Source of the DNA: an uncultured Erysipelotrichaceae bacterium
Lineage (GTDB): Bacteria > Bacillota_I > Bacilli_A > RF39 > UBA660
Direction of reading: 5' to 3'
Assembly: GCA_902798815.1 (NCBI GenBank)
Contig: CADBYH010000001.1
Location: forward strand, 69,554-133,553
Length of the DNA stretch: 64,000 nt
The notes under the pieces were generated by a model. That model was not told the DNA's origin. It worked only from the letters and a program-made list of their open reading frames with translations, and ran no database searches. Positions 1-55,305 of the stretch are shown piece after piece (position 1 is the stretch's first letter; each line of letters begins with the position of its first letter). Made by a program: the position numbers and the translations under genes.

Positions 1-1276
1 CAAGTAGAGTAATTAAATGATTTCCATTATGTTTTCCTGTACCCATAGCACCATCATCAATAGTAATTAGTACTGACTTTTTAGGAAGATCTATCTTTCC
101 ATATATCCAATTAACAAATTCCTTCATAGTAAGAGTTTTATATCCATTATCTTTTAAATACTGTAAATGTTCTCTAAATTTGTTAACTTCTAGACATATT
201 GCTTCATCACATCTCTGACTATTAGGATCATAAAAGAAATGATAATTCAAAACTGCAATGCCAAAATCATTACTATTAATTTCTTCTTCAGATACATCTT
301 CACCATTTGCCATTTTTAAAATGTCATCAATAGAAGAATATGTTTTAATAACATATCTATTTAATTTATCTTTTTTATCCTTTGATGTAGACTTTTTATT
401 TGTATTTTGAAATTTAATATTATCTTTATCATTAATAATAGAAATATTTGCTTTATACTTATCATTTAGTAATTTAACTTCATCAGTCTCACTACCAGTA
501 GTTAAAAATACTGACTTTTCTTTTAATCTTATATAATCATTAATAAATGCAATATATTCATCTTTAGTGATTAAATTATATCCATTATTCTTTAATTCTA
601 TTATTTGTGTCTTAACATTTTCTATATCTAAGCAACCATTACCCTCACAATTGTTACCAATACCTTCATAATATAAAACACTAATATAATCTGTTGCTTT
701 ATCACTTGTATTATTTTTCTTAATAGTCTTTATTTTTTTATCTTTCTTAATACTAAATGTTTTATTCAAATATTTAACGTAATAGCTATCTTTATCCATA
801 TAAAGAATTTCTTTATTAATTCCATTAGTTAGGGTAATTACTTTCTTACCATTTCTATATAGATTTATCTTGTTATTTGACTTTATATTTTTATTAAAAA
901 CAATATAATTGTCATTAGAATCAATATCCGTTATTTTCTTAATCTTTTTTATATTTTTATATCCAATATAATTATCAGAATTTTTTACTTTTAAATACTT
1001 ATTCTTAATAGTAATATTTTTAATATCTTCTAATTCTATTTGAAGATCTTTATCAATATAACCAATTAGTTTTTTATTTTTATCATATAATTTAGTATTT
1101 CCTTTAGTAATAACGTATTTATTATAATTGTTCTTAATATTTTTAAGAATAATTTTATTGGAATTCTTAATTATTAAGAAAGATAAAACTCCACATATAA
1201 TCAATAAAATAACAATAATTAAAATAATAGATTTTTTATGTTTTACTTTAATTTTCTTTTTTCTTTTCTTTGTCAT
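1..1276 (-). CDS. membrane-anchored polysaccharide deacetylase (NodB fold), C-terminal part cut by window edge
   Basis: Absent from the ORF track because it runs off the window. Reverse-strand ATG at 1276-1274 follows a GAGGG SD. The N-terminus MTKKRKKKIKVKHKKSIILIIVILLIICGVLSFLII is a membrane anchor. Near the window edge the same frame reads ...IAVLNYHFFYDPNSQRCDEAICLEVNKFREHLQYLKDNGYKTLTMKEF...KKSVLITIDDGAMGT, which is the NodB TFDDG-type motif context. Confidence 0.6.
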   Translation of the reverse strand, partial: MTKKRKKKIKVKHKKSIILIIVILLIICGVLSFLIIKNSNKIILKNIKNNYNKYVITKGNTKLYDKNKKLIGYIDKDLQIELEDIKNITIKNKYLKVKNSDNYIGYKNIKKIKKITDIDSNDNYIVFNKNIKSNNKINLYRNGKKVITLTNGINKEILYMDKDSYYVKYLNKTFSIKKDKKIKTIKKNNTSDKATDYISVLYYEGIGNNCEGNGCLDIENVKTQIIELKNNGYNLITKDEYIAFINDYIRLKEKSVFLTTGSETDEVKLLNDKYKANISIINDKDNIKFQNTNKKSTSKDKKDKLNRYVIKTYSSIDDILKMANGEDVSEEEINSNDFGIAVLNYHFFYDPNSQRCDEAICLEVNKFREHLQYLKDNGYKTLTMKEFVNWIYGKIDLPKKSVLITIDDGAMGTGKHNGNHLITLL

Positions 1277-6498: not shown

Positions 6499-7044
6499 AT
6501 GTATAAAAATAAATTAAGAAAAGAAATAATAAAAAATGTTATATATGTAGGAATAATACTATTAGTTGCATGTTTCTTTACATATAAAATATATAATAAA
6601 TTCCAAACTAATAGAGATGTTGATTATAATTCAGAATCATTAGATATTGTATATCATGATCAGGGAGATAAAATATCAATCACAAAACCAATACCAATGA
6701 CAGATTCTGTAGGTCTTTCAACTAATGGATATAGTATTAGTATTAAAAACAATTTAACTATAAACGCATATTATAAAATAATTATTGAAGATGACCCAGA
6801 ATATAGTGAATTAAATACTATTCCAAAAGAAGATATAAGAATTTCTATAAAAATCAATAAAAAAAATAACAAAATATATAACTATAATGAAATAGAAGAT
6901 GGATTAATATTAGAATCAGAATTAGAAGCATTAAAAAAAGATGATATTACTATTCGTATGTGGATTAATAAAGATAGTACATTACCAACAAATACTAATC
7001 TACAATATCATGGAATAATTAAGGTTTCAGAAGAAAAGGAATAG
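6499..7044 (+). CDS. hypothetical membrane-anchored protein
   Basis: 181-aa ORF with SD AAAGAGG. One N-terminal TM helix (VIYVGIILLVACFFTY) is followed by a beta-rich soluble part. Confidence 0.5.
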   Translation: MYKNKLRKEIIKNVIYVGIILLVACFFTYKIYNKFQTNRDVDYNSESLDIVYHDQGDKISITKPIPMTDSVGLSTNGYSISIKNNLTINAYYKIIIEDDPEYSELNTIPKEDIRISIKINKKNNKIYNYNEIEDGLILESELEALKKDDITIRMWINKDSTLPTNTNLQYHGIIKVSEEKE

Positions 7045-7522: not shown

Positions 7523-7732
7523 ATGATGAAATTAGATATTCAATTATTTGCTGTACCTTTCCGTAAAGTATCAAAGACAAGAAAAAGATTAAGAAGAAGT
7601 CATAATGCTTTAGAGGTTCCAGGAATGACTAAATGTCCTACTTGTGGGGAAATGATTAAACCTCATAGAGTTTGTCCTAAATGTGGAAGTTATAAAGGTA
7701 AAACAGAAGTTAGTAAGAAAGAAGCAGAATAA
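7523..7732 (+). CDS. rpmF: 50S ribosomal protein L32 with a 9-residue N-terminal extension
   Basis: [51 protein letters not shown] matches the canonical L32, including its CxxC...CxxC zinc ribbon. The ATG at 7523 lies 9 nt after SD AAGGAG, so the MMKLDIQLF extension is translated. Confidence 0.9.
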
Positions 7733-7744
7733 TCTGCTTTTTTT
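7722..7744 (+). terminator. intrinsic terminator after rpmF
   Basis: AAGCAGA / TCTGCTT hairpin followed by a T-run. Confidence 0.6.
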
Positions 7745-7754: not shown

Positions 7755-7783
7755 TTGATTTAATTATGAATATACTTTATAAT
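7755..7783 (+). promoter_or_regulatory. sigma-A type promoter for the first giant pilin gene
   Basis: TTGATT - 17 nt - TATAAT. Confidence 0.4.
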
Positions 7784-7814
7784 TACTATTATAAAATAGA
7801 AAGATAGTGATAAA

Positions 7815-10307
7815 ATGAAGAGAATAAAAAAAGGATTTACACTAGTGGAACTACTTGCCGTAATAGTAATTATAGGTATCCTAGCAGTATCATCAGTAGT
7901 TGCATATACAAAATATATTGATAAGGCTAGAAATGAAAAAGAATTTCAAAACGAGAATACTATTATTTCCGCAACAAAACTATTTCTTCAAGCAAATAAA
8001 GATTATATGCCAAAAATAATTGGAGAATCAAGAATAATTAAAGTATCACTATTAAAAAATAATAATTATTTAAAAGAAGATATTGTAAATAAAAAGGGCG
8101 AATCTTGTATGGAATATTCTTACGTTTATGTATATAAGAATGACTATAACTCATATACATATAAACCATATATTTATTGTGGTTCAGAAACTCCAAATAA
8201 CACTACAACACTAGATTCTCCAGTAATTACAGATTTTAACTTTTCAAATTCAAGTAAAGTAAAAAAAGCGTCATTCTCAATGAAAATAAAAGGATCTAAC
8301 TCTGATTCAACTATAAAAATAGATAGTTATAATTACACTATTTATGTTAAAAAAACAGGAGAAACAAAATATACAGAATACTATTCATCAGGATCAATAT
8401 CTGGTAAAAAACAAACAACAATTAACGTTGGTCCAATATATCTAAAAGATTATATTGATATTACTGGATATACTTCTGTAAAAGTAAAAATATTTGTTAG
8501 AAATAACTTAGGAAAAACTGCTGAAGTAACAAAATCAACAGGAGATAATGGATTTATTGATACAACTGCTCCAAATAGTGAATGTAATGATATTACGGGA
8601 CAAGCAACATCAGAAAGTGATTGGATTAATAAAGGATCAGGAAGATCAAGAGTAATTACAATAAAGTGTAATGACGGAGATGGATCAGGATGTATTAGAG
8701 ATGAATTTATTAAGAGTTGGCCATCAGAAAATGAAAAAAGTGTAAAAACATCATCTATAGAAATAGAAGATAATACAGGTAATAAAACAACTTGTCCTGT
8801 ATTGGTAAATGTAGATACTATAGCTCCAACAATAAAAATAACTGCTATAAGTAAAAAATCAAAGTCATCATTACTTACAGAAAGAACAGCAACAGATGGA
8901 GAAGCAATTACAATAAATCCAACAGATTTTAAAGGTACAAATAATACAAATGGTTGGATTAATAAATCAATGGCAGAAGAAGGTATCCAATTCACAGTTA
9001 CTACAGAAGATGATATGTATTTATATAATTATACTTGGGAGACAAGTGATACAGATTCTTCATCTAAACAATTTAATAAAGTAGATTCTAAAAATGAACA
9101 ATTCACTATCTTCTTAAATAAAGAAGGAAGAAGATATGGAAGATTAACGGTATATGATAGAGCAGGAAACGCAACAGTAATTAATGTATATGCAAATATT
9201 GATTATGGACCTAAAAATTTAAAATTAACGATGACACATAGCTATGATTCATCAAAACCACAAGGAAGTAAAGCAACAGTATATTCAAATAATACATGGA
9301 TAGCAACAAATGTTTATATGACAGATGCTAGAACTGTTCCATATGTAGGTCCAACAGCAGATTCAATAAGCGGAATAGCAAAATATCAAATATCATCAGA
9401 TAATAAAAAATGGGAAGATTATAATTATGATTCTGATCAGGAATTATATAGAATTAGAACTAATGGTACAAGTACAAGATATATAAAAGCAATAGATAAT
9501 GCAGGAAATACTGCATCAATAACAAAAACAATTAAAATAGATAAAGAAGGACCAAAAAACTTAACATTAACAATGACCCATAGTTATGATTCATCAAAAC
9601 CGCAAGGAAGCAAAGCAACAGTATATTCAAATGGAACAAAAACATCAAATAATGTTTATATGACAGATGCAAGATATTATCCTTTTGTAGGTCCTTCAGC
9701 AGAATCATTATGCGGAATTAAAAGTTATGAAATATCAGATGATAACAAAATATGGACAATTTACAAATATGATTCCAGTAAAGAATTATATAGACTAACA
9801 ACAAACGGAACACACTATAGATATATAAAGGCAACAGATAATCTTAATAGAGAGATTACTATTACAAAGAAAATTGTCATAAGTAAGTGTAGTGCTTCAA
9901 ATCCATTTGGTTGTGATAAATATGGTGCATGTAGAAAAAATGGTAAAGAAACAGGTTCAACAACTACCTTTGATTGTCCACCATATACAAGTATATGTAC
10001 AAATACACATGGAAGTACTGATCCATGGTGGACAGGAACAATCAAACATTATAAAGGTGATTCATATGATGTAGTATATCCAGTAAAAGATAGTAATGGT
10101 AACAATATTACAAATGGAAACTGGATTCAAGTATGTGCAACAGGAGGAGATTTATATAACGATCCTGTAGATCATAGTTATCTAACAAATTATTGGAATA
10201 ATAATAAAGTAACTGTAGATGGAAAAACATGCTATAAACTATGGGTACATAAAAAATGTATAGAAAAAAATGGCGCAACATGTAGTACATCGGAATGTCC
10301 AGGATAG
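7815..10307 (+). CDS. giant modular type IV pilin-like protein (prepilin leader + Ig-like modules + Cys-rich C-terminal domain)
   Basis: N-terminus MKRIKKGFTLVELLAVIVIIGILA is a class III signal (G-1, F+1, E+5). Downstream modules are bounded by VNVDTIAPT and end in YDRAGN / IDNAGN motifs. There is a 114-aa tandem duplication and a Cys-rich tail. The first ~460 aa are paralogous to 11059..14337. Confidence 0.8.
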   Translation: MKRIKKGFTLVELLAVIVIIGILAVSSVVAYTKYIDKARNEKEFQNENTIISATKLFLQANKDYMPKIIGESRIIKVSLLKNNNYLKEDIVNKKGESCMEYSYVYVYKNDYNSYTYKPYIYCGSETPNNTTTLDSPVITDFNFSNSSKVKKASFSMKIKGSNSDSTIKIDSYNYTIYVKKTGETKYTEYYSSGSISGKKQTTINVGPIYLKDYIDITGYTSVKVKIFVRNNLGKTAEVTKSTGDNGFIDTTAPNSECNDITGQATSESDWINKGSGRSRVITIKCNDGDGSGCIRDEFIKSWPSENEKSVKTSSIEIEDNTGNKTTCPVLVNVDTIAPTIKITAISKKSKSSLLTERTATDGEAITINPTDFKGTNNTNGWINKSMAEEGIQFTVTTEDDMYLYNYTWETSDTDSSSKQFNKVDSKNEQFTIFLNKEGRRYGRLTVYDRAGNATVINVYANIDYGPKNLKLTMTHSYDSSKPQGSKATVYSNNTWIATNVYMTDARTVPYVGPTADSISGIAKYQISSDNKKWEDYNYDSDQELYRIRTNGTSTRYIKAIDNAGNTASITKTIKIDKEGPKNLTLTMTHSYDSSKPQGSKATVYSNGTKTSNNVYMTDARYYPFVGPSAESLCGIKSYEISDDNKIWTIYKYDSSKELYRLTTNGTHYRYIKATDNLNREITITKKIVISKCSASNPFGCDKYGACRKNGKETGSTTTFDCPPYTSICTNTHGSTDPWWTGTIKHYKGDSYDVVYPVKDSNGNNITNGNWIQVCATGGDLYNDPVDHSYLTNYWNNNKVTVDGKTCYKLWVHKKCIEKNGATCSTSECPG
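9207..9890 (+). repeat. tandem 342-bp (114-aa) in-frame duplication inside the pilin gene
   Basis: GPKNLKLTMTHSYDSSKPQGSKATVYSN... (from 9207) repeats as GPKNLTLTMTHSYDSSKPQGSKATVYSN... (from 9549). The first ~90 nt of each unit are nearly identical at the DNA level. Confidence 0.85.
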
Positions 10308-10315
10308 GAGTTAGT

Positions 10316-10966
10316 ATGACAAAGATAAAGAAAAGAAAAACAAATAATAATAAATATCTAATACCTATACTTATAGTAATAATTGTTATAGGAATTATCT
10401 TATTTTTTATCCTAAAACCAAAGAATTCATACAGTATTAAAACTAGATATACTATAAATAGTTGTAAAAAGGATTGTAATATTAAAGAAACAAACTATAA
10501 TCAACTAAAATCAAATATCCCAAAAAATGCATTTAAAAAAATAATAGATAAAGTTAATAAACAAGTAACAAAAAGTTATGAAGAGGATATTAATTCACCA
10601 TTAGATGGAAATGATTGTAAAAAAGTAAAAGATAATTTAAATAACAGATATATTACTAATATATATTATGATAATTATGAAAATGATAAATACATTTCAA
10701 TCCATATGGATATGGTAAGAATAGATTTATGTACTAAAAAGACAAGTAAATCAGATAATTATACATACATATATAGTAAAAAAGACAACAAAGAATTATC
10801 AACAAAAGATTTTATGAACAAAGAATCTATTCTAGAAGATATGATTAACACATCAATAGAAGATAAAACAAATAAATATAGTATATTTTATAATAGTAAA
10901 GGAAAGTTATTTATATCTTATAGTATTAATAATTCACATATAATAAAACCATTAAATAATAAATAA
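10316..10966 (+). CDS. hypothetical membrane-anchored protein
   Basis: ATG at 10316 follows SD GGATAGGAG, so the track start at 10295 is probably too early. N-terminal TM helix YLIPILIVIIVIGIILFFIL. Located between the two pilin paralogs. Confidence 0.6.
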   Translation: MTKIKKRKTNNNKYLIPILIVIIVIGIILFFILKPKNSYSIKTRYTINSCKKDCNIKETNYNQLKSNIPKNAFKKIIDKVNKQVTKSYEEDINSPLDGNDCKKVKDNLNNRYITNIYYDNYENDKYISIHMDMVRIDLCTKKTSKSDNYTYIYSKKDNKELSTKDFMNKESILEDMINTSIEDKTNKYSIFYNSKGKLFISYSINNSHIIKPLNNK

Positions 10967-10993
10967 TCTATATAAAAATATAGATTATTTTTT
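10962..10993 (+). terminator. intrinsic terminator
   Basis: Perfect 12-bp hairpin AATAATCTATAT / ATATAGATTATT followed by a T-run. Confidence 0.65.
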
Positions 10994-10994
10994 G

Positions 10995-11023
10995 TTGAAT
11001 AATAATAAAAAATACATTATAAT
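10995..11023 (+). promoter_or_regulatory. sigma-A type promoter for the second giant pilin gene
   Basis: TTGAAT - 17 nt - TATAAT. Confidence 0.45.
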
Positions 11024-11058
11024 TAATATGTAATAATAGGGCATAAGGTAGTGGTTAT

Positions 11059-14000
11059 ATGAAAAAAAATAAAGGTTTTACATTAATTGAATTATTAGCT
11101 GTAATAACAATAGTAGGGATCTTATCAGTAGGAGCAGTTACTGCATACTCAAGATATATAAAAAAGGCACATGATCAACAGGATGTTGAGAACGTAAATA
11201 CAGTAAAATCAGCTGCAAAACTCTTTTTGCAAGCAAACAAAGATTATATGCCAAAAACAATAGGTGAAACAAGAAAAATACCACTAAGTTTATTAAGAAC
11301 TAACAACTACCTAAAAGAAGATGTTATAGGCAGTAATGGAGAATCTTGTATGGAGTATTCATATGTAAAAGTTACTAAGAAAGACACTAGAAAGTATACA
11401 TATGAACCATTTCTTCATTGTAGTAGTGAAGCACCAACAGGAACCGAAGAAAGTACAATAAAACCATATATAGCAGTAAATTTCTCATCATTATCAAACG
11501 TAAAAACAGCATCATTCTCTTTAGAGATATATGGATCAAGTGCACGTAGATCAGATATAACAATTGAAAGTTATTCATATACAATATATGCTAAAAAGGC
11601 AAATGATACTAAATATACAGAATACTATACATCAGGAAATATTTCCGGAAAAAAACAACCTTCAATAACTGTAAATAATATAAAATTAAGAAACTATTTA
11701 GATATAACAAAAAGTACAAAAGTAAGAGTAAAAGTAATAGCAAGAAATAATTTAGGAAATACTGAAACAGTAACAAAAACAACATCAGCCGAAGGATTTA
11801 AAGATGATGTAGCACCAAGTTCTGAGGAATGTAAAAATATAATTCATGGTCAATCAACTGGAAATAGTGATTGGGTAAATAAAGCAGACGTTAATGCCGG
11901 AAGAAAAAGAACAATTGAAATGGATTGTAATGATAGAGAAGGATCAGGATGTGTCAGAGATAAATTTATCAAGAGTTGGCCAACTAAGAATGAAAAAAGT
12001 ATTAGAACATCAACAATAGAAGCAGAAGATAATTCTGGAAATAAAACAACATGTCAAGTATTAGTAAATGTAGATACAATTGCTCCAACAGTAAAAGTAA
12101 CTGCAAAAGATATCAAAAACAATAAAGTATTATTTACACAAAGAGCAGCAGTTGATGGAGCGAATATAACAATAGATGCTAATTCATATATTGGAGTAGT
12201 AGGAGGCTGGTTAAATAAATCAGTAGCCCCTGAGGGAGTAAAATATATATTTGAAATAAGTGATGATTTAGAATTAAAGAATTATAAATGGCAATATAAT
12301 AATTCAAGTCTTCCAGCAAATTCAACACAAGCATCTATCACTACAATAAAAGGAGAATCAACACAGAATTTAGCTAATAAAAAAACTCATAATGCAGAAT
12401 TAACTTTAACTGGAAACGGAATGAGATATGCCAAACTTACTGCAGTAGATATAGCAGGAAATACAACATCAGTAAATATCTATTTGAATTTAGATAACCA
12501 ATCTCCAATTTGTACACCTCAAATAAAAGATTTAAAAGGAAACGCATATACTCCAGGAAGATGGTTAAAAAAAGGTGAAGGAGTTAACATTTATGGAATA
12601 TGTTCAGATACAGGTGGATCATTATGTAAAGGAAATCTAACCCCAAAAACATATAATACAGATATGGAAGCATCAGTTGGATGGGATGCAACAGATTTAG
12701 TTTATGATAATGCTGGAAATAGTGCATCATGCGAAAAAAAATATCAAGTAAATATTGATACAATTCCACCAACACTTTCATTAGTTGCAAAACCAACAGG
12801 AAAAACAACTCAAGTTTTAAGTAAAACAGCTGAAGCTGGATCAACAACTCAAATTTTAGCAAATGAGTACTCAATAAAAGCAACAAATGATAACTGGTTG
12901 AATTCAGTAAGTTATCCATCTGGAATTAAATATTATTTGACTATAACAGATAACAAGTATTTATATAAAGAAATTTGGGAAGAAAATAAAAAAGATTTAC
13001 CAATAGGATCTGCACCCGCAACAATTACAAGTATACCATCTGGTAATAGTAAAACAACCATATATAGTCAACCATCATCAGGACACCTAACAAGTAAAAG
13101 TGTTGAACATGAATTAAGTGATGATGGAGTTAGATATGCTAATTTTATGGTATATGATAAAGCGGGTAATTCAACAACATTCCAGATTTATGCAAATGTA
13201 GATCATACTCCACCAAAATTAACAATTCATCCATATATAATTAAGACTTTAAATGGAACAACATACACCGATACAAATGGTGATGCTTATAGTAATAAAA
13301 ACAATTTGAGTAAAAAAGAGGTATCTGGAACAGGTTCAGTAGTAATTAATGCTAACCAATATGCAAATGTAAGAGACAACAATAATTGGATGAATTTAGA
13401 TTATTATCCAAAAGGAGTAGCATATAATATTGTTATGGAAGATACACTTTCAAAATTAAGTAAGTATCATTGGTTAACATCATCAAATGTAACATCAAAC
13501 AACACAACAGAACCAACAACTGGTTTTAATACATTAAGTTCACATCCAACAACATATGGAAGTAGTAATAAAGGATTTACATTGACAGGTAATGGAAAAA
13601 GATATGCTAGGATTACCGCATATGATCAAGCAGGAAACCATAGTTTTGGGCATATGTATGCAAACATTGATAATGTTGCTCCAGATTGTAGTTATAGTGA
13701 AGCAAGTTGCTCTAGAGGATCTGCTACAGGATGGACAAAAGGAAATAGAACAGTTAGTTTATATTGTTCTGATCCAACACCAAGTAGTGGTTGTGAAACT
13801 GCAAGATACTATCAAACATTTAGTAGTTCTAATTTTATTGATCATTTGAGTCCCGGTTCAGGAACTCGTGCAATATATGATAATGCTCAAAATGAAAGAC
13901 TATGTTCAACAGCGGTGTATACATGTATTGATAAAACTAAACCACATACTCCATACGTCAATTCCTCAAGTATTGTCATAAGAAGTGGTACAGGTTCTAT

Positions 14001-14337
14001 CACAAGCAATAATTGTTATACCTCAAGAAAAACAAGAAGTTATGATGAAGAAGAATGTGATGTATATTTCAATTTAAAAAGAGGACAAACAGTAACATGG
14101 ACCGTTCATTATTCAGGATATGATGAAGATTCAGGAATAAATAAATATCTAGTATCATTTAACTGTAATAATGGTGGTTCACCAAAAATATTCTACGATT
14201 CGGTAGATGCCAGTACAGTCGATTATTTAGATGCAAGCGGATATAAAAGTTGTACCGTTGTATACGAAGCAGTAGATTATTTAGGAAATGTCAGTGAACA
14301 ATTATTTATAAAAGAACATTTCACATATTATGATTAA
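11059..14337 (+). CDS. giant modular type IV pilin-like protein (prepilin leader + at least 6 Ig-like modules)
   Basis: MKKNKGFTLIELLAVITIVGILS prepilin signal with E+5. Module boundaries repeat as VNVDTIAPTVKV, LNLDNQSPICTP, VNIDTIPPTLSL, ANVDHTPPKLTI, ANIDNVAPDCSY and CIDKTKPHTPYV. Each follows a xYDxAGN strand (AVDIAGNTT, VYDKAGNST, AYDQAGNHS). Confidence 0.8.
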   Translation: MKKNKGFTLIELLAVITIVGILSVGAVTAYSRYIKKAHDQQDVENVNTVKSAAKLFLQANKDYMPKTIGETRKIPLSLLRTNNYLKEDVIGSNGESCMEYSYVKVTKKDTRKYTYEPFLHCSSEAPTGTEESTIKPYIAVNFSSLSNVKTASFSLEIYGSSARRSDITIESYSYTIYAKKANDTKYTEYYTSGNISGKKQPSITVNNIKLRNYLDITKSTKVRVKVIARNNLGNTETVTKTTSAEGFKDDVAPSSEECKNIIHGQSTGNSDWVNKADVNAGRKRTIEMDCNDREGSGCVRDKFIKSWPTKNEKSIRTSTIEAEDNSGNKTTCQVLVNVDTIAPTVKVTAKDIKNNKVLFTQRAAVDGANITIDANSYIGVVGGWLNKSVAPEGVKYIFEISDDLELKNYKWQYNNSSLPANSTQASITTIKGESTQNLANKKTHNAELTLTGNGMRYAKLTAVDIAGNTTSVNIYLNLDNQSPICTPQIKDLKGNAYTPGRWLKKGEGVNIYGICSDTGGSLCKGNLTPKTYNTDMEASVGWDATDLVYDNAGNSASCEKKYQVNIDTIPPTLSLVAKPTGKTTQVLSKTAEAGSTTQILANEYSIKATNDNWLNSVSYPSGIKYYLTITDNKYLYKEIWEENKKDLPIGSAPATITSIPSGNSKTTIYSQPSSGHLTSKSVEHELSDDGVRYANFMVYDKAGNSTTFQIYANVDHTPPKLTIHPYIIKTLNGTTYTDTNGDAYSNKNNLSKKEVSGTGSVVINANQYANVRDNNNWMNLDYYPKGVAYNIVMEDTLSKLSKYHWLTSSNVTSNNTTEPTTGFNTLSSHPTTYGSSNKGFTLTGNGKRYARITAYDQAGNHSFGHMYANIDNVAPDCSYSEASCSRGSATGWTKGNRTVSLYCSDPTPSSGCETARYYQTFSSSNFIDHLSPGSGTRAIYDNAQNERLCSTAVYTCIDKTKPHTPYVNSSSIVIRSGTGSITSNNCYTSRKTRSYDEEECDVYFNLKRGQTVTWTVHYSGYDEDSGINKYLVSFNCNNGGSPKIFYDSVDASTVDYLDASGYKSCTVVYEAVDYLGNVSEQLFIKEHFTYYD

Positions 14338-14348
14338 AGGAGAAACCT

Positions 14349-14675
14349 ATGAAGAAAAAAAAATTAATAATAATAACCATAGTATTTCTTATAATAATCC
14401 TAGGAATAATATTAATAACCTTTGGTGTAAATATAAATAATAAAGATTCAAAAAAAACATATATAACAAAAGAACAAGCAGAAAAAATTCTAAAAAAAGA
14501 TTTAGGACAAGAAGCCAAAGATATTAAATTTATAGAAGAAGCAGATGAATATTATAAATTTGATGTAGATAGTGATAATGAAGAAATAAAAGGAAATTAT
14601 TTGGTAGATAAAAGTAAAAAAAAGGTAATGAAAGAATACACTGGAACTACAACTTCTTCCTATAACGTTGAATAA
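14349..14675 (+). CDS. small membrane-anchored PepSY-like protein
   Basis: SD AAAGGAG. N-terminal TM helix, then ITKEQAEKILKKDLGQEAKDIKFIEEADEYYKFDV...YLVDKSKKKV, which resembles a PepSY domain. Confidence 0.5.
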   Translation: MKKKKLIIITIVFLIIILGIILITFGVNINNKDSKKTYITKEQAEKILKKDLGQEAKDIKFIEEADEYYKFDVDSDNEEIKGNYLVDKSKKKVMKEYTGTTTSSYNVE

Positions 14676-14707
14676 AACTAATTGAATAATTTTCAATTAG
14701 TTTTTTA
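14674..14707 (+). terminator. intrinsic terminator
   Basis: AAAACTAATTGAA / TTCAATTAGTTTT hairpin plus a T-run. Confidence 0.65.
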
Positions 14708-21337: not shown

Positions 21338-22066
21338 ATGAAAGCATTAATATTAAACTCAGGTGTCGGTAGTCGTATGGGTGATATTACACATTCTCAT
21401 CCTAAATGTATGACTGAAATTGCTAATGATGAAACAATAATAAGTAGACAGTTAGAATTATTGAAAAAATGTGGTATTAATTCAGTAGTTATGACTACAG
21501 GTTATTTAGATAAAGTTTTAGAAGATTATTGTAATAATTTAGGACTAGACTTGGATATTGAATATGTTAAAAATCCAAGATTTAGAGAAACTAATGCAAT
21601 TTATTCTATATATTGTGCAAGAGATTATCTTCATGATGATATTGTTATGATGCATGGAGATTTAGTGTTTACCTTAGAAGTACTAAAAAAAGTTATTGGT
21701 GATAAGAGAAGTGTAATGACTGTTAGTTCAACAATACCCTTACCAGAAAAAGATTTTAAAATCGTCATCACAGGAGATACTATAGAAAAAATAGGTGTAG
21801 AGTATTTTGACAACGCTTTATCTGCCCAACCTTTATATAAAATAAAAAGAAAAGATTGGGAGATATGGTTAAACAGCATTATTAGTTATTGTGAGAATCA
21901 TAAAGTTAATTGTTATGCAGAAGAAGCATTTAATACGGTTTCTAATCAATGTCGTATATATCCATTAGATGTTAAAAATGAATTATGTTCAGAAATAGAT
22001 AATCCAGAAGATTTAGATAATATCAAACGAAAATTAAAACAATATAAGAGAGGAGACAATAAGTAA
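21338..22066 (+). CDS. sugar-phosphate/phosphobase nucleotidyltransferase (LicC-like NTP transferase)
   Basis: N-terminal KALILNSGVGSRMG (GxGxR nucleotidyltransferase signature). First gene of the phosphonate cluster. Confidence 0.65.
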   Translation: MKALILNSGVGSRMGDITHSHPKCMTEIANDETIISRQLELLKKCGINSVVMTTGYLDKVLEDYCNNLGLDLDIEYVKNPRFRETNAIYSIYCARDYLHDDIVMMHGDLVFTLEVLKKVIGDKRSVMTVSSTIPLPEKDFKIVITGDTIEKIGVEYFDNALSAQPLYKIKRKDWEIWLNSIISYCENHKVNCYAEEAFNTVSNQCRIYPLDVKNELCSEIDNPEDLDNIKRKLKQYKRGDNK

Positions 22067-23367
22067 TGGAAAAGACTGTATATATGGTTATGTCTACTGA
22101 CGTTATTCATGGTGGGCATATTGCTATTATTAATAAAGCAAAAAAACTTGGCAATTTAATTATAGGCGTTTTATCAGATGAAGCAGTTGCCGGTTATAAA
22201 AGATTTCCATTAATTCCTTATGAAGAAAGAAAAATATTATATAAAAATATTGATGGAGTATCTAAAGTAGTTAAACAAAATACTCTTAGTTATAAAAAAA
22301 ACATTTTAAAACTAAAACCAGATTATGTTGTTCATGGAGATAATTGGATTAATGGAAAACAAAAATTAATAAGACAAGAAGTAATTGAAACATTAGAAAC
22401 ATATGGAGGTAAATTAGTAGAATTTCCTTATTCTGATGATCCAAAGTATAAGGCAATTGATGATAGAACAAGATTTGAATTATCCCTTCCTGATTTTAGA
22501 AGAGCTAGATTAAAAAGATCTCTAGAATGTAAAGGTCTAATTACTGCTATGGAAGCACATAGTGGTATAACTGGTCTAATAGTAGAAAAAACAATGGTAG
22601 AAGAAAATGGTGGAATGAAACAATTTGATGCAATGTGGATTAGTTCTCTTTGTGATTCAACATCAAAAGGAAAACCTGATATTGAATTAGTAGATATGAC
22701 ATCTCGCTTTAGAACAATAGATGATATTATGGAGGTAACTACTAAGCCAATCATTTTTGATGGAGATACAGGTGGATTAAAAGAACACTTTGTATATACT
22801 GTAAGAACTTTAGAAAGAATGGGAGTTTCCATGATTATCATTGAAGATAAAATAGGATTAAAGAAAAACTCATTATTTGGAACAGAAGTGAAACAGATAC
22901 AAGATGATATAGATAGTTTCTGTGAAAAAATAAAAGCAGGAAAGGAAGCTCAAAAAAGTCAAGATTTTATGATTTGTGCTAGAATTGAGAGTTTGATTTT
23001 AGAAGCAGGAATGTCAGATGCATTAAAAAGAGCAAAAGCATTTGTGAAAGCAGGAGCAGATGCAATTATGATTCATAGCAGAAGAAAAGAACCAGACGAA
23101 ATATTTGAATTTGTTGAAAAATTTAGAAGCAAAGATAAAACAACTCCTATTGTAGTTGTTCCAACTTCATTTAATACAGTAACAGAAGAAGAATTCAAAA
23201 AACGTGGGGTAAATATAGTAATATATGCCAATCAATTAACAAGAGCTGGATTTCCAGCTATGCAGAATGCTGCAAAAAAAATCTTAGAAAATCATCGTGC
23301 TAAAGAAGTAGACGATATGTGTATATCAATTAAAGAAATAATCACATTAATTCCAGAAGATTATTAG
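22066..23367 (+). CDS. pepM: bifunctional cytidylyltransferase / phosphoenolpyruvate mutase (Fom1/PntC-PepM type fusion)
   Basis: The N-terminal ~130 aa carry the cytidylyltransferase HxGH motif (TDVIHGGHIAIINKAKKLG). The C-terminal domain carries the PEP mutase signature EDKxxxxxNS (IIEDKIGLKKNSLFG). Confidence 0.85.
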   Translation: MEKTVYMVMSTDVIHGGHIAIINKAKKLGNLIIGVLSDEAVAGYKRFPLIPYEERKILYKNIDGVSKVVKQNTLSYKKNILKLKPDYVVHGDNWINGKQKLIRQEVIETLETYGGKLVEFPYSDDPKYKAIDDRTRFELSLPDFRRARLKRSLECKGLITAMEAHSGITGLIVEKTMVEENGGMKQFDAMWISSLCDSTSKGKPDIELVDMTSRFRTIDDIMEVTTKPIIFDGDTGGLKEHFVYTVRTLERMGVSMIIIEDKIGLKKNSLFGTEVKQIQDDIDSFCEKIKAGKEAQKSQDFMICARIESLILEAGMSDALKRAKAFVKAGADAIMIHSRRKEPDEIFEFVEKFRSKDKTTPIVVVPTSFNTVTEEEFKKRGVNIVIYANQLTRAGFPAMQNAAKKILENHRAKEVDDMCISIKEIITLIPEDY

Positions 23368-23376
23368 GAGAATAAT

Positions 23377-24504
23377 ATGCAAAAAATACTAAGTTCAAAA
23401 AAAAATTATATTGATTTGAAAAAATATCTGCAAAATAATAAATATCAAAATATTTTATTAGTATGTGGTAACCATTTTTTAAAAAGTGATTTATATAAAA
23501 AAATTATTGAATATACAAATAATTTAAATATTAATATTCATATTTTTAAAGATTTTGAACCAAACCCAAGTTATGAATCAGTATGCTTAGGAGTAAAAAA
23601 GTTTATAGATAATAATTGTGATTTCATTATTGCTGTAGGTGGAGGAAGTAGTATTGATGTAGCAAAATGTATTAAACTATATTCTAATATGGATCATAGC
23701 AAAAATTATTTAAACCAAGAATTTATCCCAAATAATACAAAAATTTTAGCTATTCCTACAACCGCGGGAACAGGAAGTGAAGCAACTAAGTATTCTGTTA
23801 TTTACTATAAAGGAGAAAAACAATCTATAACTAGTGATAGTTGTATTCCTGAAATAGTATTATTTGATAATAATTCTTTAGAAACTCTTTCCATATATCA
23901 AAAGAAAGCAACTTTATTAGATGCTTTTAGTCATTCAATAGAATCATTATGGTCAATTAATTCAACAGAAGAAAGTATTAATTATGCGATAGAATCAATT
24001 AAATTAATTATTAAAAACATTAATAAATATTTAGAAAACGATTCAAGTATTTTTAAAGATATGTTTGAAGCATCTAATCTAGCAGGAAAAGCAATAAACA
24101 TTTCTAGAACAACAGCTGGACACGCTATGTGCTATAAATTAACAACTAAATATAATATTTCTCATGGGCATGCAGCAATGTTAATAAATTCAGAACTTCT
24201 TCCTTATATGATGGAAAACACTAATAAGTGTTCAGATCCAAGAGGAGAAAAACATTTAAAAGAAATATTTAGTATTATAAAAAAAACACTCAAATGTAAA
24301 AATAATAATGAATTAAAAAATTATTTTAGAAATCTATTAGATAAACTAGATTTATATAATGTTGAAGTAAATAAAAAAGATATTGATTTACTAGTTAAAT
24401 CAGTAAATGTAACTAGGTTATCAAATAATCCAATAAAATTAGAAAATAATGATATCAAAATAATCTATGAAAGATTATTTGATAGAATAGGTGATAAGCA
24501 ATGA
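23377..24504 (+). CDS. iron-containing alcohol dehydrogenase (phosphonoacetaldehyde reductase-like)
   Basis: Fe-ADH motifs AVGGGSSIDVAKC and HGHAAM. Sits between pepM and the phosphonopyruvate decarboxylase gene. Confidence 0.7.
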   Translation: MQKILSSKKNYIDLKKYLQNNKYQNILLVCGNHFLKSDLYKKIIEYTNNLNINIHIFKDFEPNPSYESVCLGVKKFIDNNCDFIIAVGGGSSIDVAKCIKLYSNMDHSKNYLNQEFIPNNTKILAIPTTAGTGSEATKYSVIYYKGEKQSITSDSCIPEIVLFDNNSLETLSIYQKKATLLDAFSHSIESLWSINSTEESINYAIESIKLIIKNINKYLENDSSIFKDMFEASNLAGKAINISRTTAGHAMCYKLTTKYNISHGHAAMLINSELLPYMMENTNKCSDPRGEKHLKEIFSIIKKTLKCKNNNELKNYFRNLLDKLDLYNVEVNKKDIDLLVKSVNVTRLSNNPIKLENNDIKIIYERLFDRIGDKQ

Positions 24505-25625
24505 AGGTATTAGACTTTATAAAAACATTAGGTTCAGACTTTTATACAGGAGTGCCTGACTCTCAATTAAAACCATTATGCAACTATTTAATGAATACAT
24601 ATGGTATTGATAATAAACATCACATAATTGCAGCGAATGAAGGTAATTGTGTTGGACTAGCAGCAGGATACTATTTAGCAACATCAAAAATACCAGTAGT
24701 ATATATGCAAAATAGTGGAGAGGGTAATATTATTAATCCCGTAGCCTCTTTATTAAATGAAAAAGTATACAGCATTCCAATGATATTTGTAATAGGTTGG
24801 AGAGGACAACCAGGAGTTCACGATGAACCTCAACATATCTATCAAGGGGAAATAACGATTAAATTGTTAGATGATATGAATATCTCATCATTTATAATAA
24901 AAAAAGATACAACAAAAGAAGAGATAAAAAACAAAATGAAGAATTTTAAAAAAAATCTAAAAGAGGGCAAACAAGTTGCATTTGTGATAGAAAAGAACGC
25001 TTTAGAATATGATCAAAAAATAGAATATAAAAATGATAATAAAATGAATAGAGAAGAAATAATTGAGCATATTGTAAAAGTAAGCAAAAATGATCCTATC
25101 ATATCAACAACAGGTAAAGCCTCTCGCGAATTATTTGAAATAAGAGAAAAGAATAATGAATCCCACGAATATGATTTTTTAACAGTAGGTTCCATGGGTC
25201 ATTCATCTTCAATTGCCTTGGGAATAGCAATAGAAAAACCAGAATCAAAAATATGGTGTATTGACGGTGATGGAGCATTATTAATGCATATGGGTTCAGC
25301 AGCAGTTATTGCATCAGTAAAACCTAATAACTTTATTCATATCTTAATTAATAATGGAGCTCATGAAACAGTAGGAGGTATGCCAACTGTTGCAAATAAT
25401 ATTAATTTACCTAAATTAGCTGAAGCATGTGGTTATAAAAAAATATATAGTGTAGATAATTTTAAAGACTTAGATAAAGTTTTAAAAGAAGCAAAGAAAA
25501 ATAATAAGTTGACATTTATCGAGGTGTTATCATCAATAGGAGCAAGATCTGATTTAGGAAGACCCACAACAACAGCAAAAGAAAACAAAGAAAACTTTAT
25601 GAAATACTTAAATAAAAATAATTAA
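24501..25625 (+). CDS. phosphonopyruvate decarboxylase (ThDP-dependent)
   Basis: ThDP-binding motif IDGDGALLMHMGSAAV...LINNGAHETVGG. Length (~375 aa) and adjacency to pepM fit this assignment. Confidence 0.8.
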   Translation: MKVLDFIKTLGSDFYTGVPDSQLKPLCNYLMNTYGIDNKHHIIAANEGNCVGLAAGYYLATSKIPVVYMQNSGEGNIINPVASLLNEKVYSIPMIFVIGWRGQPGVHDEPQHIYQGEITIKLLDDMNISSFIIKKDTTKEEIKNKMKNFKKNLKEGKQVAFVIEKNALEYDQKIEYKNDNKMNREEIIEHIVKVSKNDPIISTTGKASRELFEIREKNNESHEYDFLTVGSMGHSSSIALGIAIEKPESKIWCIDGDGALLMHMGSAAVIASVKPNNFIHILINNGAHETVGGMPTVANNINLPKLAEACGYKKIYSVDNFKDLDKVLKEAKKNNKLTFIEVLSSIGARSDLGRPTTTAKENKENFMKYLNKNN

Positions 25626-25828: not shown

Positions 25829-26446
25829 ATGCATACAAAAAACTTAAGGAGAGTAGCTGAAGAATTAGAAAAAACACATAAAATAAGAAATCTAAAAATA
25901 TCTAGAGAAATGATAGATTATCATTGTGATAAATGTTGGTATTCCTGGGCAGAAACATCAACAGAAATAGAATTCAATGATAGATTATATAAAATTCTTC
26001 TTAAAATGTTACCAAAAGAAATTAGATTAACATTAAAAAAACTTGATAAAGAAATCTTTAAATTAAGAGTAGAAATTAAAAAATCAACCGGATGGGAATT
26101 ATTTGATAGAACAAGTATGTATCATGGATATAAACCAGAAAGACCATTCTTTAAAGAACCAGAAGTTAAACGTAATGAAAATGGTTTCTACGTAGAAATG
26201 CAAGAATCATATCTTTATCAAGAACATAAAGCAATAGATGAGAGAGCAAAACAGTTCTACGAAGAAAATAAAGAGACATTAAAAAAACTACATGATTTAA
26301 TGTCAACGAAAGAATTAATTTTAAATAAAACTATATCATTAGTTTCAGAAGAAAACAAAGATCTTACTAGAGAGATATTATTATTTCTAGGATATAATCC
26401 TAATGAAGAAAATGAAACAACATATAATAACAGATTTTTTATATAA
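25829..26446 (+). CDS. hypothetical cytosolic protein (paralog A), riboswitch-controlled
   Basis: SD AAAGGGGTGA. 205 aa with no TM segment. Shares ...LLKMLPKEIR...KKSTGW... and a C-terminal ...EILLFLGYNPNEENETTYN with the next gene. Confidence 0.7.
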   Translation: MHTKNLRRVAEELEKTHKIRNLKISREMIDYHCDKCWYSWAETSTEIEFNDRLYKILLKMLPKEIRLTLKKLDKEIFKLRVEIKKSTGWELFDRTSMYHGYKPERPFFKEPEVKRNENGFYVEMQESYLYQEHKAIDERAKQFYEENKETLKKLHDLMSTKELILNKTISLVSEENKDLTREILLFLGYNPNEENETTYNNRFFI

Positions 26447-26481
26447 AGTAGCTAATAGCTTAAAGAAGGGGTGTGATGTAT

Positions 26482-27051
26482 ATGAGTAATTACGAAAAAT
26501 TAGTTATAGAATTATGCAATATTAATAAAAAAGATTTAGCAGAAAGAATAATCAAAGTAGAGGAAAATCATGAATATCAAGAAAAAAGAAGAATAGATTA
26601 TGAATTATATTTATTATTATTAGATCTTGTTCCAGAAAGAATTAAAGATCAAATTGAAACATTAAGATTAGAAATAATTAATATGAAAAAGTCTATTATG
26701 GATCAATCTGGATGGTATGTAGATAACGATATATTTGAATTTAGTAATGGAGTATTCATGCATGACTTTAGTTATGACATGGGATATGATGTTGCTTATA
26801 TTGTTAGAAACAACAAAGAGTATAAGGTATTAGATGATTTCAAAACACCAAGTAGAGAACGTTTAGAAACTGATTTCTTTGAAACATACAAAGAACAATT
26901 AATAGGACTTAATGATATGATATGCTTATATGAATTATTATTAAGAACTTGTTCAAAATCAGTTAAAAACAACAAATCATTAGTAAATGAAATTGTTACT
27001 TACTTGGGATATAATGATTCTAAGAAAAAAAATAAAACCTATAATTATTAA
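26482..27051 (+). CDS. hypothetical cytosolic protein (paralog B)
   Basis: SD GAAGGGG at 26465-71. The ATG at 26482 has better spacing than the track GTG at 26473. Shares LLLDLVPERIK...KKSIMDQSGW...EIVTYLGYNDSKKKNKTYN with the previous gene. Confidence 0.7.
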   Translation: MSNYEKLVIELCNINKKDLAERIIKVEENHEYQEKRRIDYELYLLLLDLVPERIKDQIETLRLEIINMKKSIMDQSGWYVDNDIFEFSNGVFMHDFSYDMGYDVAYIVRNNKEYKVLDDFKTPSRERLETDFFETYKEQLIGLNDMICLYELLLRTCSKSVKNNKSLVNEIVTYLGYNDSKKKNKTYNY

Positions 27052-27056
27052 ATATA

Positions 27057-27085
27057 ATAGCAATGATTTCATTGCTATTTTTTTA
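27057..27085 (+). terminator. intrinsic terminator
   Basis: ATAGCAATGA / TCATTGCTAT hairpin plus T7. Confidence 0.7.
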
Positions 27086-27159
27086 TTAAAAAGAATGTAT
27101 TTTTATAGGAAATATGTTACAATTAAAATGGTATAGTATAGAAAAGGATGGTGATATAA

Positions 27160-28521
27160 ATGATAAATAATATTAATCAAAATATATCAAAACCATCCTT
27201 TTTATATACAGATAAAAATAACTATGAAGAATTTTTAAATGAAGCTAGAAATAACAATACATCTATTATTGGATTTACATCATTGCTACCAGAACCTGAT
27301 CTAGTCCTTCCAGATATTGATAAACCATCATTTAAAGATATTGATAAATTTATAGAATCAATTTCTAATTTAAAATACCAAGAAAAATTCATTCCAATTT
27401 TAACTGGTTTTGAAACAGAATATCATCCAATGAAAGAAGCATATCTTGCAGAAGCAAGAGAAAAAGTTGATTTCTTAATCTTATTTCAAAGACATGTTAA
27501 TAAAGGACTAATAAATACTAATCCAACAAACAATCCAAACTATCCAATTGAATACGCAAATACAGTTATTAAAGCACTTGAAAGTGGCTTGTTTGATATA
27601 GTTAAATTCCCTGATTATTTTACAAAATATGAGAGTACTATAACAGAAGAAAATCAAGAATTATATAAAGAAAATGTAGAAATTGCCAGTCAAGTAATAT
27701 GTGAAAAAGCAAGAGATTTAAATATTCCAATAGAATTAGACTTATCAAATGCAAACACTAGCCAAGTATTTGTAGAAATTGCCAGTGAGATAGATAATCT
27801 ACAAGTACTTATAAATTCATCACATAATGATAATAATCTATATAAATTAATTGAATCAAAAATTGTAAATAAATATTATAGCCCTGTAAGTAATAGACAA
27901 AATAATAAGAAACTTCAAAAACTATGTAGTAAGACATCAAATAATTCATTAACATATGAAACACATATGATTAATCAAATAATGAAAAATGCCTTTAAAA
28001 ACATAAAAGTATGGGACAATCCAGAAAATTTAGAAATAACAATAAGTTATATATTAGATCAAACCTTTAAAAATTGCGTAAAGGATGCAAATGAACAATA
28101 TAACTCAATTATAAATGATCCTGTATTAAAAAAATCTGAAAAACAACAGATTGCTAAAGAAATACTAGAAGTATTAGATAAACAAAAAATAGTTTTAGAA
28201 AACGCTAAAGAATATTTCTCTATAGCAGTTAATCTAGGGTGTAATTCAAAAAAAGAATATTTAAATATAATTACTCAAATTTCTCAATATAATTCAACTA
28301 CATCAGAACTACAAAAGTTAGATATAGAAGAACATCTTAATAGATATGCTGCTTCAAAAGGATTAATAAATATAGATAGACATGTATATACATTACGAAA
28401 AGAAAAAAACTTTTTAACAGAAAACGAAGGCTCAATAAGTATATTTGGAATTGTATTAATTTCAATAATATTATGTATTTTAGTTATTTGTTTAATTGTC
28501 TATAAAGTAATAATAATGTAA
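27160..28521 (+). CDS. degenerate PHP-fold (HisJ-like) protein with C-terminal membrane anchor
   Basis: The layout follows HisJ-type PHP phosphatases (GFETEY for GlEvDY, FQRHV for gSvH, KFPDYF for gHxD, IELDLSN for lElN). However, the N-terminal HxH and most other metal ligands are replaced. C-terminal TM helix IFGIVLISIILCILVICLIVY. Confidence 0.6.
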   Translation: MINNINQNISKPSFLYTDKNNYEEFLNEARNNNTSIIGFTSLLPEPDLVLPDIDKPSFKDIDKFIESISNLKYQEKFIPILTGFETEYHPMKEAYLAEAREKVDFLILFQRHVNKGLINTNPTNNPNYPIEYANTVIKALESGLFDIVKFPDYFTKYESTITEENQELYKENVEIASQVICEKARDLNIPIELDLSNANTSQVFVEIASEIDNLQVLINSSHNDNNLYKLIESKIVNKYYSPVSNRQNNKKLQKLCSKTSNNSLTYETHMINQIMKNAFKNIKVWDNPENLEITISYILDQTFKNCVKDANEQYNSIINDPVLKKSEKQQIAKEILEVLDKQKIVLENAKEYFSIAVNLGCNSKKEYLNIITQISQYNSTTSELQKLDIEEHLNRYAASKGLINIDRHVYTLRKEKNFLTENEGSISIFGIVLISIILCILVICLIVYKVIIM

Positions 28522-28534
28522 GAATGGAGAATAT

Positions 28535-28669
28535 ATGGAAGAAAATAAAGAAAAAACAAATAAAGAAGAATATGAAGTTCTTAAAGAATTAAATCAAAAG
28601 ATTATACTTTTTAAAAAAGATAGTGAGGAAAAAGATAAAAAAGATAATAATCAAACTATAAGGAGGTAA
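28535..28669 (+). CDS. possible 44-aa charged micro-ORF
   Basis: Below the track cut-off. ATG lies 5 nt after GGAG. It fills the gap between two operon genes and its stop is 4 nt before the next ATG. Sequence: MEENKEKTNKEEYEVLKELNQKIILFKKDSEEKDKKDNNQTIRR. Confidence 0.3.
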   Translation: MEENKEKTNKEEYEVLKELNQKIILFKKDSEEKDKKDNNQTIRR

Positions 28670-28673
28670 AAAT

Positions 28674-32567: not shown

Positions 32568-32630
32568 GAATCACAAGTAATTCCAAAACAACTATCACCT
32601 GATGAGATTTTAGAAATTAGTGATTTATCA

Positions 32631-33617: not shown

Positions 33618-33626
33618 GAGGTAATT

Positions 33627-35159: not shown

Positions 35160-35180
35160 GTATAACTTATTTGTTTTTTT
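35151..35180 (+). terminator. intrinsic terminator ending the 27160-35159 operon
   Basis: AACAAATAAG / CTTATTTGTT hairpin plus a T-run. Confidence 0.7.
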
Positions 35181-35320
35181 ATTTGATGATTATCAAAAAA
35201 ACATACTTATATATGGTATATTATCAAATAAAGTGTTAAATAAGTGTAAAGTAAAGTGACTAACCAATTGAAAAACAAACGAATAAAGTGTATAATATGT
35301 CATTGATTAAGGGGGATATT

Positions 35321-36385: not shown

Positions 36386-36422
36386 TTTATGAACAAAAAC
36401 GTATATATATGTTATTAACATA

Positions 36423-36451
36423 TTAACAAAAACAGCATAATATGGTATAAT
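36423..36451 (+). promoter_or_regulatory. extended -10 promoter of riboswitch leader 2
   Basis: TTAACA - 17 nt (containing TGG) - TATAAT. The spacing from -10 to GGAGTAG is the same 16 nt as in copy 1. Confidence 0.55.
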
Positions 36452-36459
36452 TATATACG

Positions 36460-36579: not shown

Positions 36580-36610
36580 GTATACCACAAAAAAAGGGGG
36601 AATATATTTT

Positions 36611-55301: not shown

Positions 55302-55305
55302 ATCA

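Follow-up and report, generated by a model that had tools for sequence, protein, structure and literature searches.

Two probable giant modular type IV pilins of an uncultured gut and rumen Bacilli lineage

Introduction

That simple type IV filaments have gained many functions is currently explained by modular pilins. They were defined by Raynaud et al. in 2021, who listed more than 1,200 proteins with 264 architectures, multi-domain ones included; the largest had 860 amino acids (aa) with 12 repeats (PMC8179133). PilB was shown to act as a filament-borne adhesin, and many further modular pilins with unrecognised modules were predicted (PMC8179133). Here we analyzed 64 kb of DNA from an uncultured Bacillota bacterium (contig CADBYH010000001.1, positions 69,554 to 133,553; hereafter the window), which holds two open reading frames (ORFs), A and B, encoding proteins of 830 and 1,092 aa. 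An earlier note, made from the letters of this DNA, had read them as paralogous giant proteins with prepilin leaders fused to long immunoglobulin (Ig)-like module arrays, and had assumed that no modular pilin known so far has more than one extra domain. The catalogued architectures, with their multi-domain members and the 12-repeat case, contradict that assumption (PMC8179133). We propose that A and B probably arose by an old duplication within a family of giant modular type IV pilins that is spread across the lineage, and are displayed on a filament.

Results

ORF A and ORF B begin with a conserved pilin module

Both proteins begin with the signature of type IV pilins, namely a basic leader ending in Gly, followed by Phe at position +1, Glu at position +5 and about 20 hydrophobic residues. 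The Pfam N_methyl family (PF07963) matched A at 28.6 bits and B at 32.8 bits against a cut-off of 21.2, and TIGR02532 matched at 28.9 and 29.5 against 16.3, in agreement with the class III signals read earlier in the two ORFs. In an alignment of 39 family members, Glu+5 was invariant; Gly-1, Phe+1 and the Cys98/Cys122 pair were invariant or conserved in at least 90%, and four more Cys in the domain at residues 248-333 were invariant. The Cys98/Cys122 pair occupies the position of the pilin D-region. The near-invariance of Gly-1, Phe+1, Glu+5 and the Cys pair of the head indicates that the pilin module is under selection.

Models built by AlphaFold2 on family alignments had predicted local distance difference test values of 70.5 (A) and 75.2 (B). 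They consisted of a helix at residues 10-60, a small beta sheet (strands at 72-119) and successive beta-sandwiches, and confidence was high at residues 40-470 in A and 40-720 in B. The heads of both proteins were predicted to adopt the lollipop fold of pilins. When a profile of the head (first ~134 residues) was compared with the PDB, the best match was PilE1 of Streptococcus sanguinis (8pfb, E 7e-11), and further matches were Geobacter PilA, a second PilA, MshA and GspG; the aligned stretch in these matches was mainly alpha-1.

The scores of the NCBIfam equivalog models for pilins of type II secretion systems (T2SS) and competence (Com) systems stayed below their cut-offs: GspG 24.6 against 88.9, GspH 21-23 against 80, ComGC 18-19 against 75, ComGE 14-21 against 49, and ComGD far below. 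The GspG/H and ComGC/GE models aligned solely with the N-terminal helix of A and B. Pilins of the Flp/Tad type have 50-80 aa and a G/xxxxEY site, whereas A and B carry G/FTL[VI]E and have 830 and 1,092 aa. Their architecture, a pilin module of ~125 aa followed by 5-8 beta-sandwich modules, is that of the modular pilins of Raynaud et al. 2021.

Paralogy and module arrays

A and B were 53% identical over residues 1-480 (BLASTP), with module content diverging beyond, and BLASTP also detected additional internal copies of the 248-463 module of A inside B. Two motifs mark the module ends, DxxGN (four in A and five in B) and [VI]D..P at the boundaries (four and six), so that the repeated motifs in differing numbers described earlier were recovered. 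The identity of the codon-aligned DNA was 66% overall and peaked at 79% at A residues 282-321. The value of ~80% in the earlier note thus holds as a ceiling but not as the norm, and the stretches that it quoted were 72% identical. With this overall identity and ceiling, nothing pointed to recent gene conversion. The Cys-rich end ascribed to A was also found, and the last 220 residues of B hold 10 Cys as well (Table 1).

Foldseek searches with the whole models returned tandem Ig/FN3-type arrays, among them those of the giant adhesins SiiE, MpIBP and GhpA. These were generic Ig-array matches that did not hint at what the distal domains do. Together with the strings of beta-sandwiches in the models, they bear out the proposed long Ig-like arrays at the level of the fold only, as no module of A or B exceeded a Pfam or NCBIfam threshold. 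The sub-threshold scores were 15.9 against 23.3 for Big_3_2, 25.3 against 40 for the OmpL47-type barrel, and 11.9 against 27 for Bact_surface_Ig-like. Searching with Big/HYR-type profiles, as the earlier note had advised, therefore placed no module in the described bacterial Ig-like families (Big_x, HYR, Bact_surface_Ig-like, OmpL47 barrel), and Pfam scans of the isolated C-terminal domains of both proteins gave nothing significant.

The same genes were present in independent assemblies. A protein identical to ORF B (P0001) was found on five contigs, and the public gene call for A (P0003, 820 aa) was 99.9% identical to ORF A over 820 aa. This call starts at GTG 7845, 10 codons late. Because the start is too late, the class III signal and the Pfam match are lost and the databases do not record A as a pilin.

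A lineage-wide family with a conserved stalk

In a word-indexed search, 85 relatives were found in metagenome-assembled genomes (MAGs) of uncultured 'Bacilli bacterium'; almost all of them have 600-1,900 aa and PF07963, and their NCBI name is the generic 'type II secretion system protein'. When the head by itself was used in an exhaustive profile search, 383 cluster representatives (50% identity) were obtained at E<=1e-30. The best 144 new representatives had a median length of 892 aa; 54 of them had at least 1,000 aa and the longest had 2,450 aa. The shortest family member had 125 aa. The pair had been regarded as an extreme case; with hundreds of clusters sharing the head and lengths up to 2,450 aa, it is not exceptional in its lineage.

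In the syntenic relatives L005-L007, one or two giant pilin genes lay between yceD-rpmF and addB. From end to end, protein P0002 was 53% identical to B and P0004 was 36% identical to A, and judging from these alignments they are likely orthologues of B and A. Since each paralogue has a likely orthologue, the duplication that gave rise to A and B appears to be old. Residues 1 to about 470 (head and domains D1-D3) were conserved family-wide and the part beyond varied. A conserved proximal part with a variable distal part is customary for a stalk with variable binding ends.

We also collected 97 low-G+C loci (1.42 Mb; hereafter the lineage loci), about 70 of them centred on GFTLxELLA pilins and about 27 on CpaF. 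The same lineage also has short pilins, 128-234 aa long and standing alone, that match the head profile of A and B over its whole length; these could form the body of a filament. ORFs with a class III signal were abundant in the lineage loci; they ranged from 100 to 1,860 aa, were frequently in tandem and lay nearly always away from machinery. No specific report on pili of RF39-like Bacilli turned up in a literature search.

In L051 (4668-10339, six pilin ORFs), L018 (3345-15462, five pilin ORFs) and L068 (9381-11928), pilin genes with the GFTLIELLAV motif form tandem arrays of 4-6, and no assembly genes lie within 10 kb of them. These arrays point to a lineage-wide expansion of orphan pilins. 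Within the window, a 492-aa protein encoded directly after rsmD (42961-44439, + strand) has the N-terminus MNNKG/FAVTTLIYGLAVIGILLV, which resembles a prepilin leader without Glu+5. It carries a RicinB lectin domain at residues 382-451 and a weak match to the ALK/LTK glycine-rich domain, a domain also found on N_methyl proteins of the lineage (P0048, P0051). In L083 and L171, the genes after rsmD encode short N_methyl pilins. The 492-aa protein may be a third modular pilin, lacking Glu+5 and perhaps of the tip type.

Each pilin gene is co-transcribed with a small anchored partner

The intrinsic terminator of the upstream yceD-rpmF unit forms the 5' boundary of the first pilin unit. The terminator scan depends on G+C content and missed two AT-rich hairpins, both of which are supported by folding. 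As these hairpin terminators lie after 10966 and 14675, each pilin is co-transcribed with the small protein behind it and each unit is bicistronic. The earlier note had given each gene its own promoter and terminator. Folding upheld the terminators, which close two-gene units, whereas promoter-like hexamers in the window were not above chance (64 found against 67.9 expected in shuffled sequence); the candidate promoters in Table 1 precede their genes, that of unit A at a fitting position, and such matches occur at chance density in this AT-rich DNA.

The N-terminal membrane anchors earlier seen in both small proteins are present. A homologue search with the 216-aa partner of A detected none outside its own species. 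A small membrane-anchored neighbour stood beside every giant pilin gene examined, and no sequence similarity was detectable when these neighbours were compared between species.

Table 1. Features of the two pilin units in the window (nucleotide positions), domains of the two proteins (aa positions) and Tad-like cassettes in other lineage loci
Feature	Position	Strand	Remarks
Intrinsic terminator of upstream yceD-rpmF unit	7717..7744	+	-13.2 kcal/mol, 12-bp stem, U-tract
Candidate sigma-70-type promoter, unit A	7755..7783	+	TTGATT-17-TATAAT, 10/12 match
ORF A	7815..10307	+	Probable giant modular type IV pilin, 830 aa
ORF A leader	aa 1-7		MKRIKKG/FTLVE
ORF A pilin module	aa 8 to about 125		Alpha-1 helix 10-60, Cys98/Cys122
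ORF A beta-sandwich D1	aa 126-247		
ORF A four-Cys domain D2	aa 248-333		
ORF A D3	aa 334-462		
ORF A two ~113-aa repeats	aa 463-575 and 576-690		
ORF A Cys-rich C-terminus	aa 691-830		10 Cys in residues 690-830
Small protein of unit A	10316..10966	+	216 aa, N-terminal membrane anchor, 9-nt gap after A
Terminator of unit A	10962..10993	+	AT-rich hairpin and U-tract, -9.1 kcal/mol, z -4.6
Candidate promoter, unit B	10995..11023	+	TTGAAT-17-TATAAT, 10/12 match
ORF B	11059..14337	+	Probable giant modular type IV pilin, 1092 aa
ORF B leader	aa 1-6		MKKNKG/FTLIE
ORF B pilin module	to about aa 125		Cys97/Cys121
ORF B D1	aa 126-248		
ORF B D2	aa 249-338		
ORF B D3	aa 339-478		
ORF B second D2-like domain	aa 479-566		
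ORF B D3-like domains	aa 567-714 and 715-870		
ORF B Cys-rich D2-like domain	aa 871-957		
ORF B beta-rich C-terminus	aa 958-1092		Last 220 residues of the protein hold 10 Cys
Small protein of unit B	14349..14675	+	108 aa, N-terminal membrane anchor, 11-nt gap after B
Terminator of unit B	14674..14706	+	Hairpin and U-tract just before addB, -11.7 kcal/mol, z -6.1
Tad cassette, L080	1-7164		
Tad cassette, L083	14187-18759		
Tad cassette, L097	5369-10670		
Tad cassettes, L089, L090, L171			

Search for the assembly machinery

Pfam scans of all ORFs of at least 100 aa detected no type IV pilus, T2SS, Com or Tad gene in the window, and phmmer and hidden Markov model (HMM) searches with GspE, HofB, GspF, HofC, GspO and Tad seeds likewise found no machinery there, as the earlier note had stated. 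The lineage loci were searched with Escherichia coli GspE, HofB, GspF, HofC and GspO and Bacillaceae PilB, PilT, PilC and PilD. These seeds readily matched machinery in control loci of Paenibacillus and Bacillaceae; in the lineage loci, CpaF was the sole ATPase of the T2SSE family, and no PilC- or ComGB-type platform was detected. A24 prepilin peptidases were searched over all fetched loci with the motif G[GAMS]GD[VIALFM][KR][LFMYVI] and an HMM, and matches were confined to the control loci from Paenibacillus, Bacillaceae and soil.

CpaF matched 7,793 proteins at E<=1e-100, many of them labelled as Bacilli or Mollicutes MAGs. In the lineage we found a compact, minimal Tad-like cassette composed of Flp, two TadE-like proteins, TadZ, CpaF, TadB and TadC (Table 1), with no prepilin peptidase adjacent to it. 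In L080 and L097, TadB has an N-terminal extracellular Ig-like module with a D-x-AGN motif as in the giant pilins. The cpaF and tadB genes of L080 flank two GFTLIELLAV pilin genes, with gaps of 10-19 nt, and pilins of the GFTLxELLAV type were found 1-4 kb from the Tad cassette in L094, L097 and L112. In a CpaF profile scan of the JGI metagenome collection, contig Ga0318466_10001269 was not among the matches listed.

Genomic setting and other genes of the window

The window has a G+C content of ~25%, and its host is an uncultured, very AT-rich rumen or gut Bacillota bacterium. Its housekeeping genes (yceD-rpmF, addBA, gyrBA, hrcA-grpE-dnaK-dnaJ, thyA-folA, a YkuD L,D-transpeptidase and ppdK) indicate a walled member of the Bacillota. 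Rumen-type metagenome assemblies hold identical sequence on contigs of up to 148.5 kb, and about 90 kb of the genome were covered in all, including the window and ~16 kb of flanks beyond its ends. Downstream of the window end lie genes for NAD synthase, a sortase and a CBM26 protein, followed by the end of the contig; the sortase, just past the window end, would serve ordinary wall anchoring.

An upstream 1140-aa protein, encoded at the site where L005 has a giant pilin, was considered as a further member and rejected, since it is an unrelated repeat protein. Between a MYG1-like gene and yceD, a 181-aa N-terminally anchored protein (6499-7044, + strand) is 51-60% conserved in L005-L007 and 34% in L019.

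A cluster of the phosphonate type (21338-25625, + strand) encodes a nucleotidyltransferase, a phosphoenolpyruvate mutase fused to a cytidylyltransferase, an iron-containing alcohol dehydrogenase and a thiamine pyrophosphate-dependent decarboxylase, which suggests phosphonate decoration of surface polymers (e.g. 2-aminoethylphosphonate or phosphocholine-like). It is followed by a block of seven ORFs (25829-36901, + strand), nearly all without a significant Pfam family. Among its products are a pair of paralogues of ~200 aa each (25829-27051), a helical and acidic protein of 1297 aa (28674-32567) and a zinc-ribbon/transmembrane protein of 510 aa, which matched no Pfam family but Zn_Ribbon_TF, at a score that missed the cut-off. 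The block is possibly a mobile island or a defence island. On the minus strand (54939-56445), two adjoining proteins of 379 aa (E 1e-44) and 120 aa have mTERF domains (PF02536). The mTERF family is known chiefly from organelles and eukaryotes.

Discussion

A and B are most economically read as adhesins carried on a type IV filament, and we consider this reading probable. A prepilin peptidase encoded elsewhere would cut the short basic leader after Gly-1. The hydrophobic alpha-1 with Glu+5, together with the disulfide-stapled head of ~125 aa, would then dock the protein into the filament, and the strict conservation of Glu+5 and the head argues for such assembly. A and B may be low-abundance (minor) subunits placed most likely at the tip, or sparsely along the shaft. 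The conserved stalk D1-D3 (to about residue 470) would project the variable distal modules off the filament, and these modules, Cys-rich ends included, may bind ligands or mediate adhesion in the rumen or gut. Each gene would be transcribed with its small, fast-evolving, membrane-anchored partner. As to the assembly machine, the best candidate, tentatively, is a minimal Tad-like cassette of the monoderm type; it occurs widely in the lineage and would be encoded at another locus.

Several observations weigh against this proposal. Neither machinery nor a peptidase was found in the window or its ~16 kb of flanks, and no A24 prepilin peptidase was detected in any lineage locus. A pilin of the Flp type is already part of the Tad cassette (L097 5369-5623, GQALVEY), so the GFTLxE pilins may need another, unseen machine. 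A giant pilin and a Tad cassette were not demonstrated together in any one genome. L171, a CpaF contig from the same JGI sample, was tried as a partner of the giant-pilin genome L006 and rejected; it has its own yceD-rpmF copy, as does L006, and is therefore most likely from a different organism. With no shared genome and a separate Flp pilin, the link between Tad and the giant pilins is no more than suggestive. In the proteins themselves, confidence in the models was low for the distal parts of A and B, their final ~140 residues included, neither Pfam nor Foldseek recognised a ligand-binding domain, and a filament shaft offers no easy place for a subunit of 100 kDa.

Alternatively, display may not depend on filaments: the class III signal and head would then anchor the protein in the membrane, with or without cleavage, or build a pseudopilus that is no more than a very short stub, and would be the general way in which the lineage holds large surface proteins at the membrane. 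In archaea, class III signals occur on non-pilus proteins, for example the sugar-binding proteins of Sulfolobus. No giant pilin locus had adjacent machinery, the many GFTLxELLAV ORFs of widely differing length, some in the tandem arrays described above, are scattered across the genome, the largest subunits would be awkward in helical packing, and no peptidase was found in the loci searched. However, a plain anchor would not need the family-wide Glu+5, Gly-1 and head disulfide, short pilins with the same head exist that could form a filament body, and in L080 pilin genes of this type form part of an operon for filament assembly. The same genome also has a sortase for ordinary anchoring. We therefore regard filament-independent display as unlikely. 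The two proteins could instead be minor pilins of a conventional type IVa pilus (PilB/PilC/PilD/PilMNO) or a Com-type system (ComGA/GB/ComC) encoded elsewhere, with Tad being unrelated. Their N-terminus is indeed of the N_methyl (type IVa/Com/T2SS) type and not of the Flp type, the closest solved relative of the head, PilE1, is a type IVa pilin, and the Tad cassettes have a pilin of their own. Yet no homologue of PilB, ComGA, PilT, PilC, ComGB or PilD was found in the lineage loci, and the ComGC, ComGD, ComGE and GspG/H scores were far below their cut-offs, which makes a conventional system improbable.

It is also conceivable, if doubtful, that the minimal Tad (type IVc) system is the only type IV filament machine of the lineage, and that it or its peptidase handles an expanded set of N_methyl (type IVa-like) pilins ranging from subunits of about 130 aa to the 2,450-aa giants. 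If true, this would mean cross-class pilin usage by a Tad machine in a reduced-genome Bacilli lineage; alternatively, it would mean a general prepilin-peptidase-dependent surface display in a bacterium, like the archaeal use of class III signals. The suspicion that A and B are annotation or assembly artefacts or decaying pseudogenes, which the 5'-truncated public call for A might raise, is effectively refuted by the conservation data: both ORFs are intact over 830 and 1,092 codons, both recur in independent assemblies, full-length relatives that are likely orthologues are 36-53% identical, the key residues are conserved and the domains are confidently modelled. Filament-displayed giant modular pilins remain our preferred explanation.

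In this family, the strategy of grafting modules onto a pilin reaches far past the largest case reported, of 860 aa; the stalks of ~470 aa are conserved, and the modules beyond them are interchangeable. The hosts are abundant, uncultured gut and rumen Bacilli, in which the giant pilins are probably major attachment determinants. The family raises the questions of where a subunit of 100-250 kDa sits in a filament and whether a minimal Tad system polymerises N_methyl pilins. The 5'-truncated public call for A and the generic 'type II secretion system protein' labels of its relatives should be corrected.

Several known systems share parts of this design. The giant adhesins SiiE, MpIBP/RTX adhesins and GhpA use tandem Ig/BIg-like beta-sandwiches as an extended stalk, as A and B do at the level of the fold, but they are exported by type I secretion systems or other routes, are anchored differently, lack a pilin head and are 8-14% identical to A and B. 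The monoderm Tad (type IVc) pilus of Bifidobacterium breve has the same minimal set as the lineage cassette (Flp, two TadE/F-like proteins, TadZ, CpaF/TadA, TadB and TadC), and its peptidase is encoded at a separate locus (PMC6916266). Unlike the pilins of B. breve, A and B are neither of the Flp type nor of the TadE type, and what ties them to the cassette is neighbourhood in other genomes (L080, L094, L097 and L112).

Among large minor pilins, CofB (type IVb pilus of enterotoxigenic E. coli) and the GspK type also have a pilin module followed by extra beta-rich domains. They are about 300-520 aa long and are encoded inside machinery operons, unlike A and B, which have no sequence similarity to them and keep Glu+5. 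The closest counterparts are the modular pilins PilB (vWA) and PilC (lectin) of S. sanguinis, likewise a monoderm, which share the class III signal, the small pilin module and C-terminal grafts, and for which an adhesive, tip-exposed role is predicted as for A and B. The S. sanguinis proteins carry a single vWA or lectin domain, whereas the payload of A and B comprises 5-8 tandem beta-sandwich modules of 700-950 aa (up to about 2,300 in relatives), which fall below Pfam thresholds and are encoded outside a pil operon. Because multi-domain modular pilins have already been catalogued, A and B extend a described concept in size and family and do not introduce a new principle. The family fits the prediction of Raynaud et al. 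2021. It is larger and multi-modular, Pfam sees nothing of it past the signal, and its genes are orphans in the genome.

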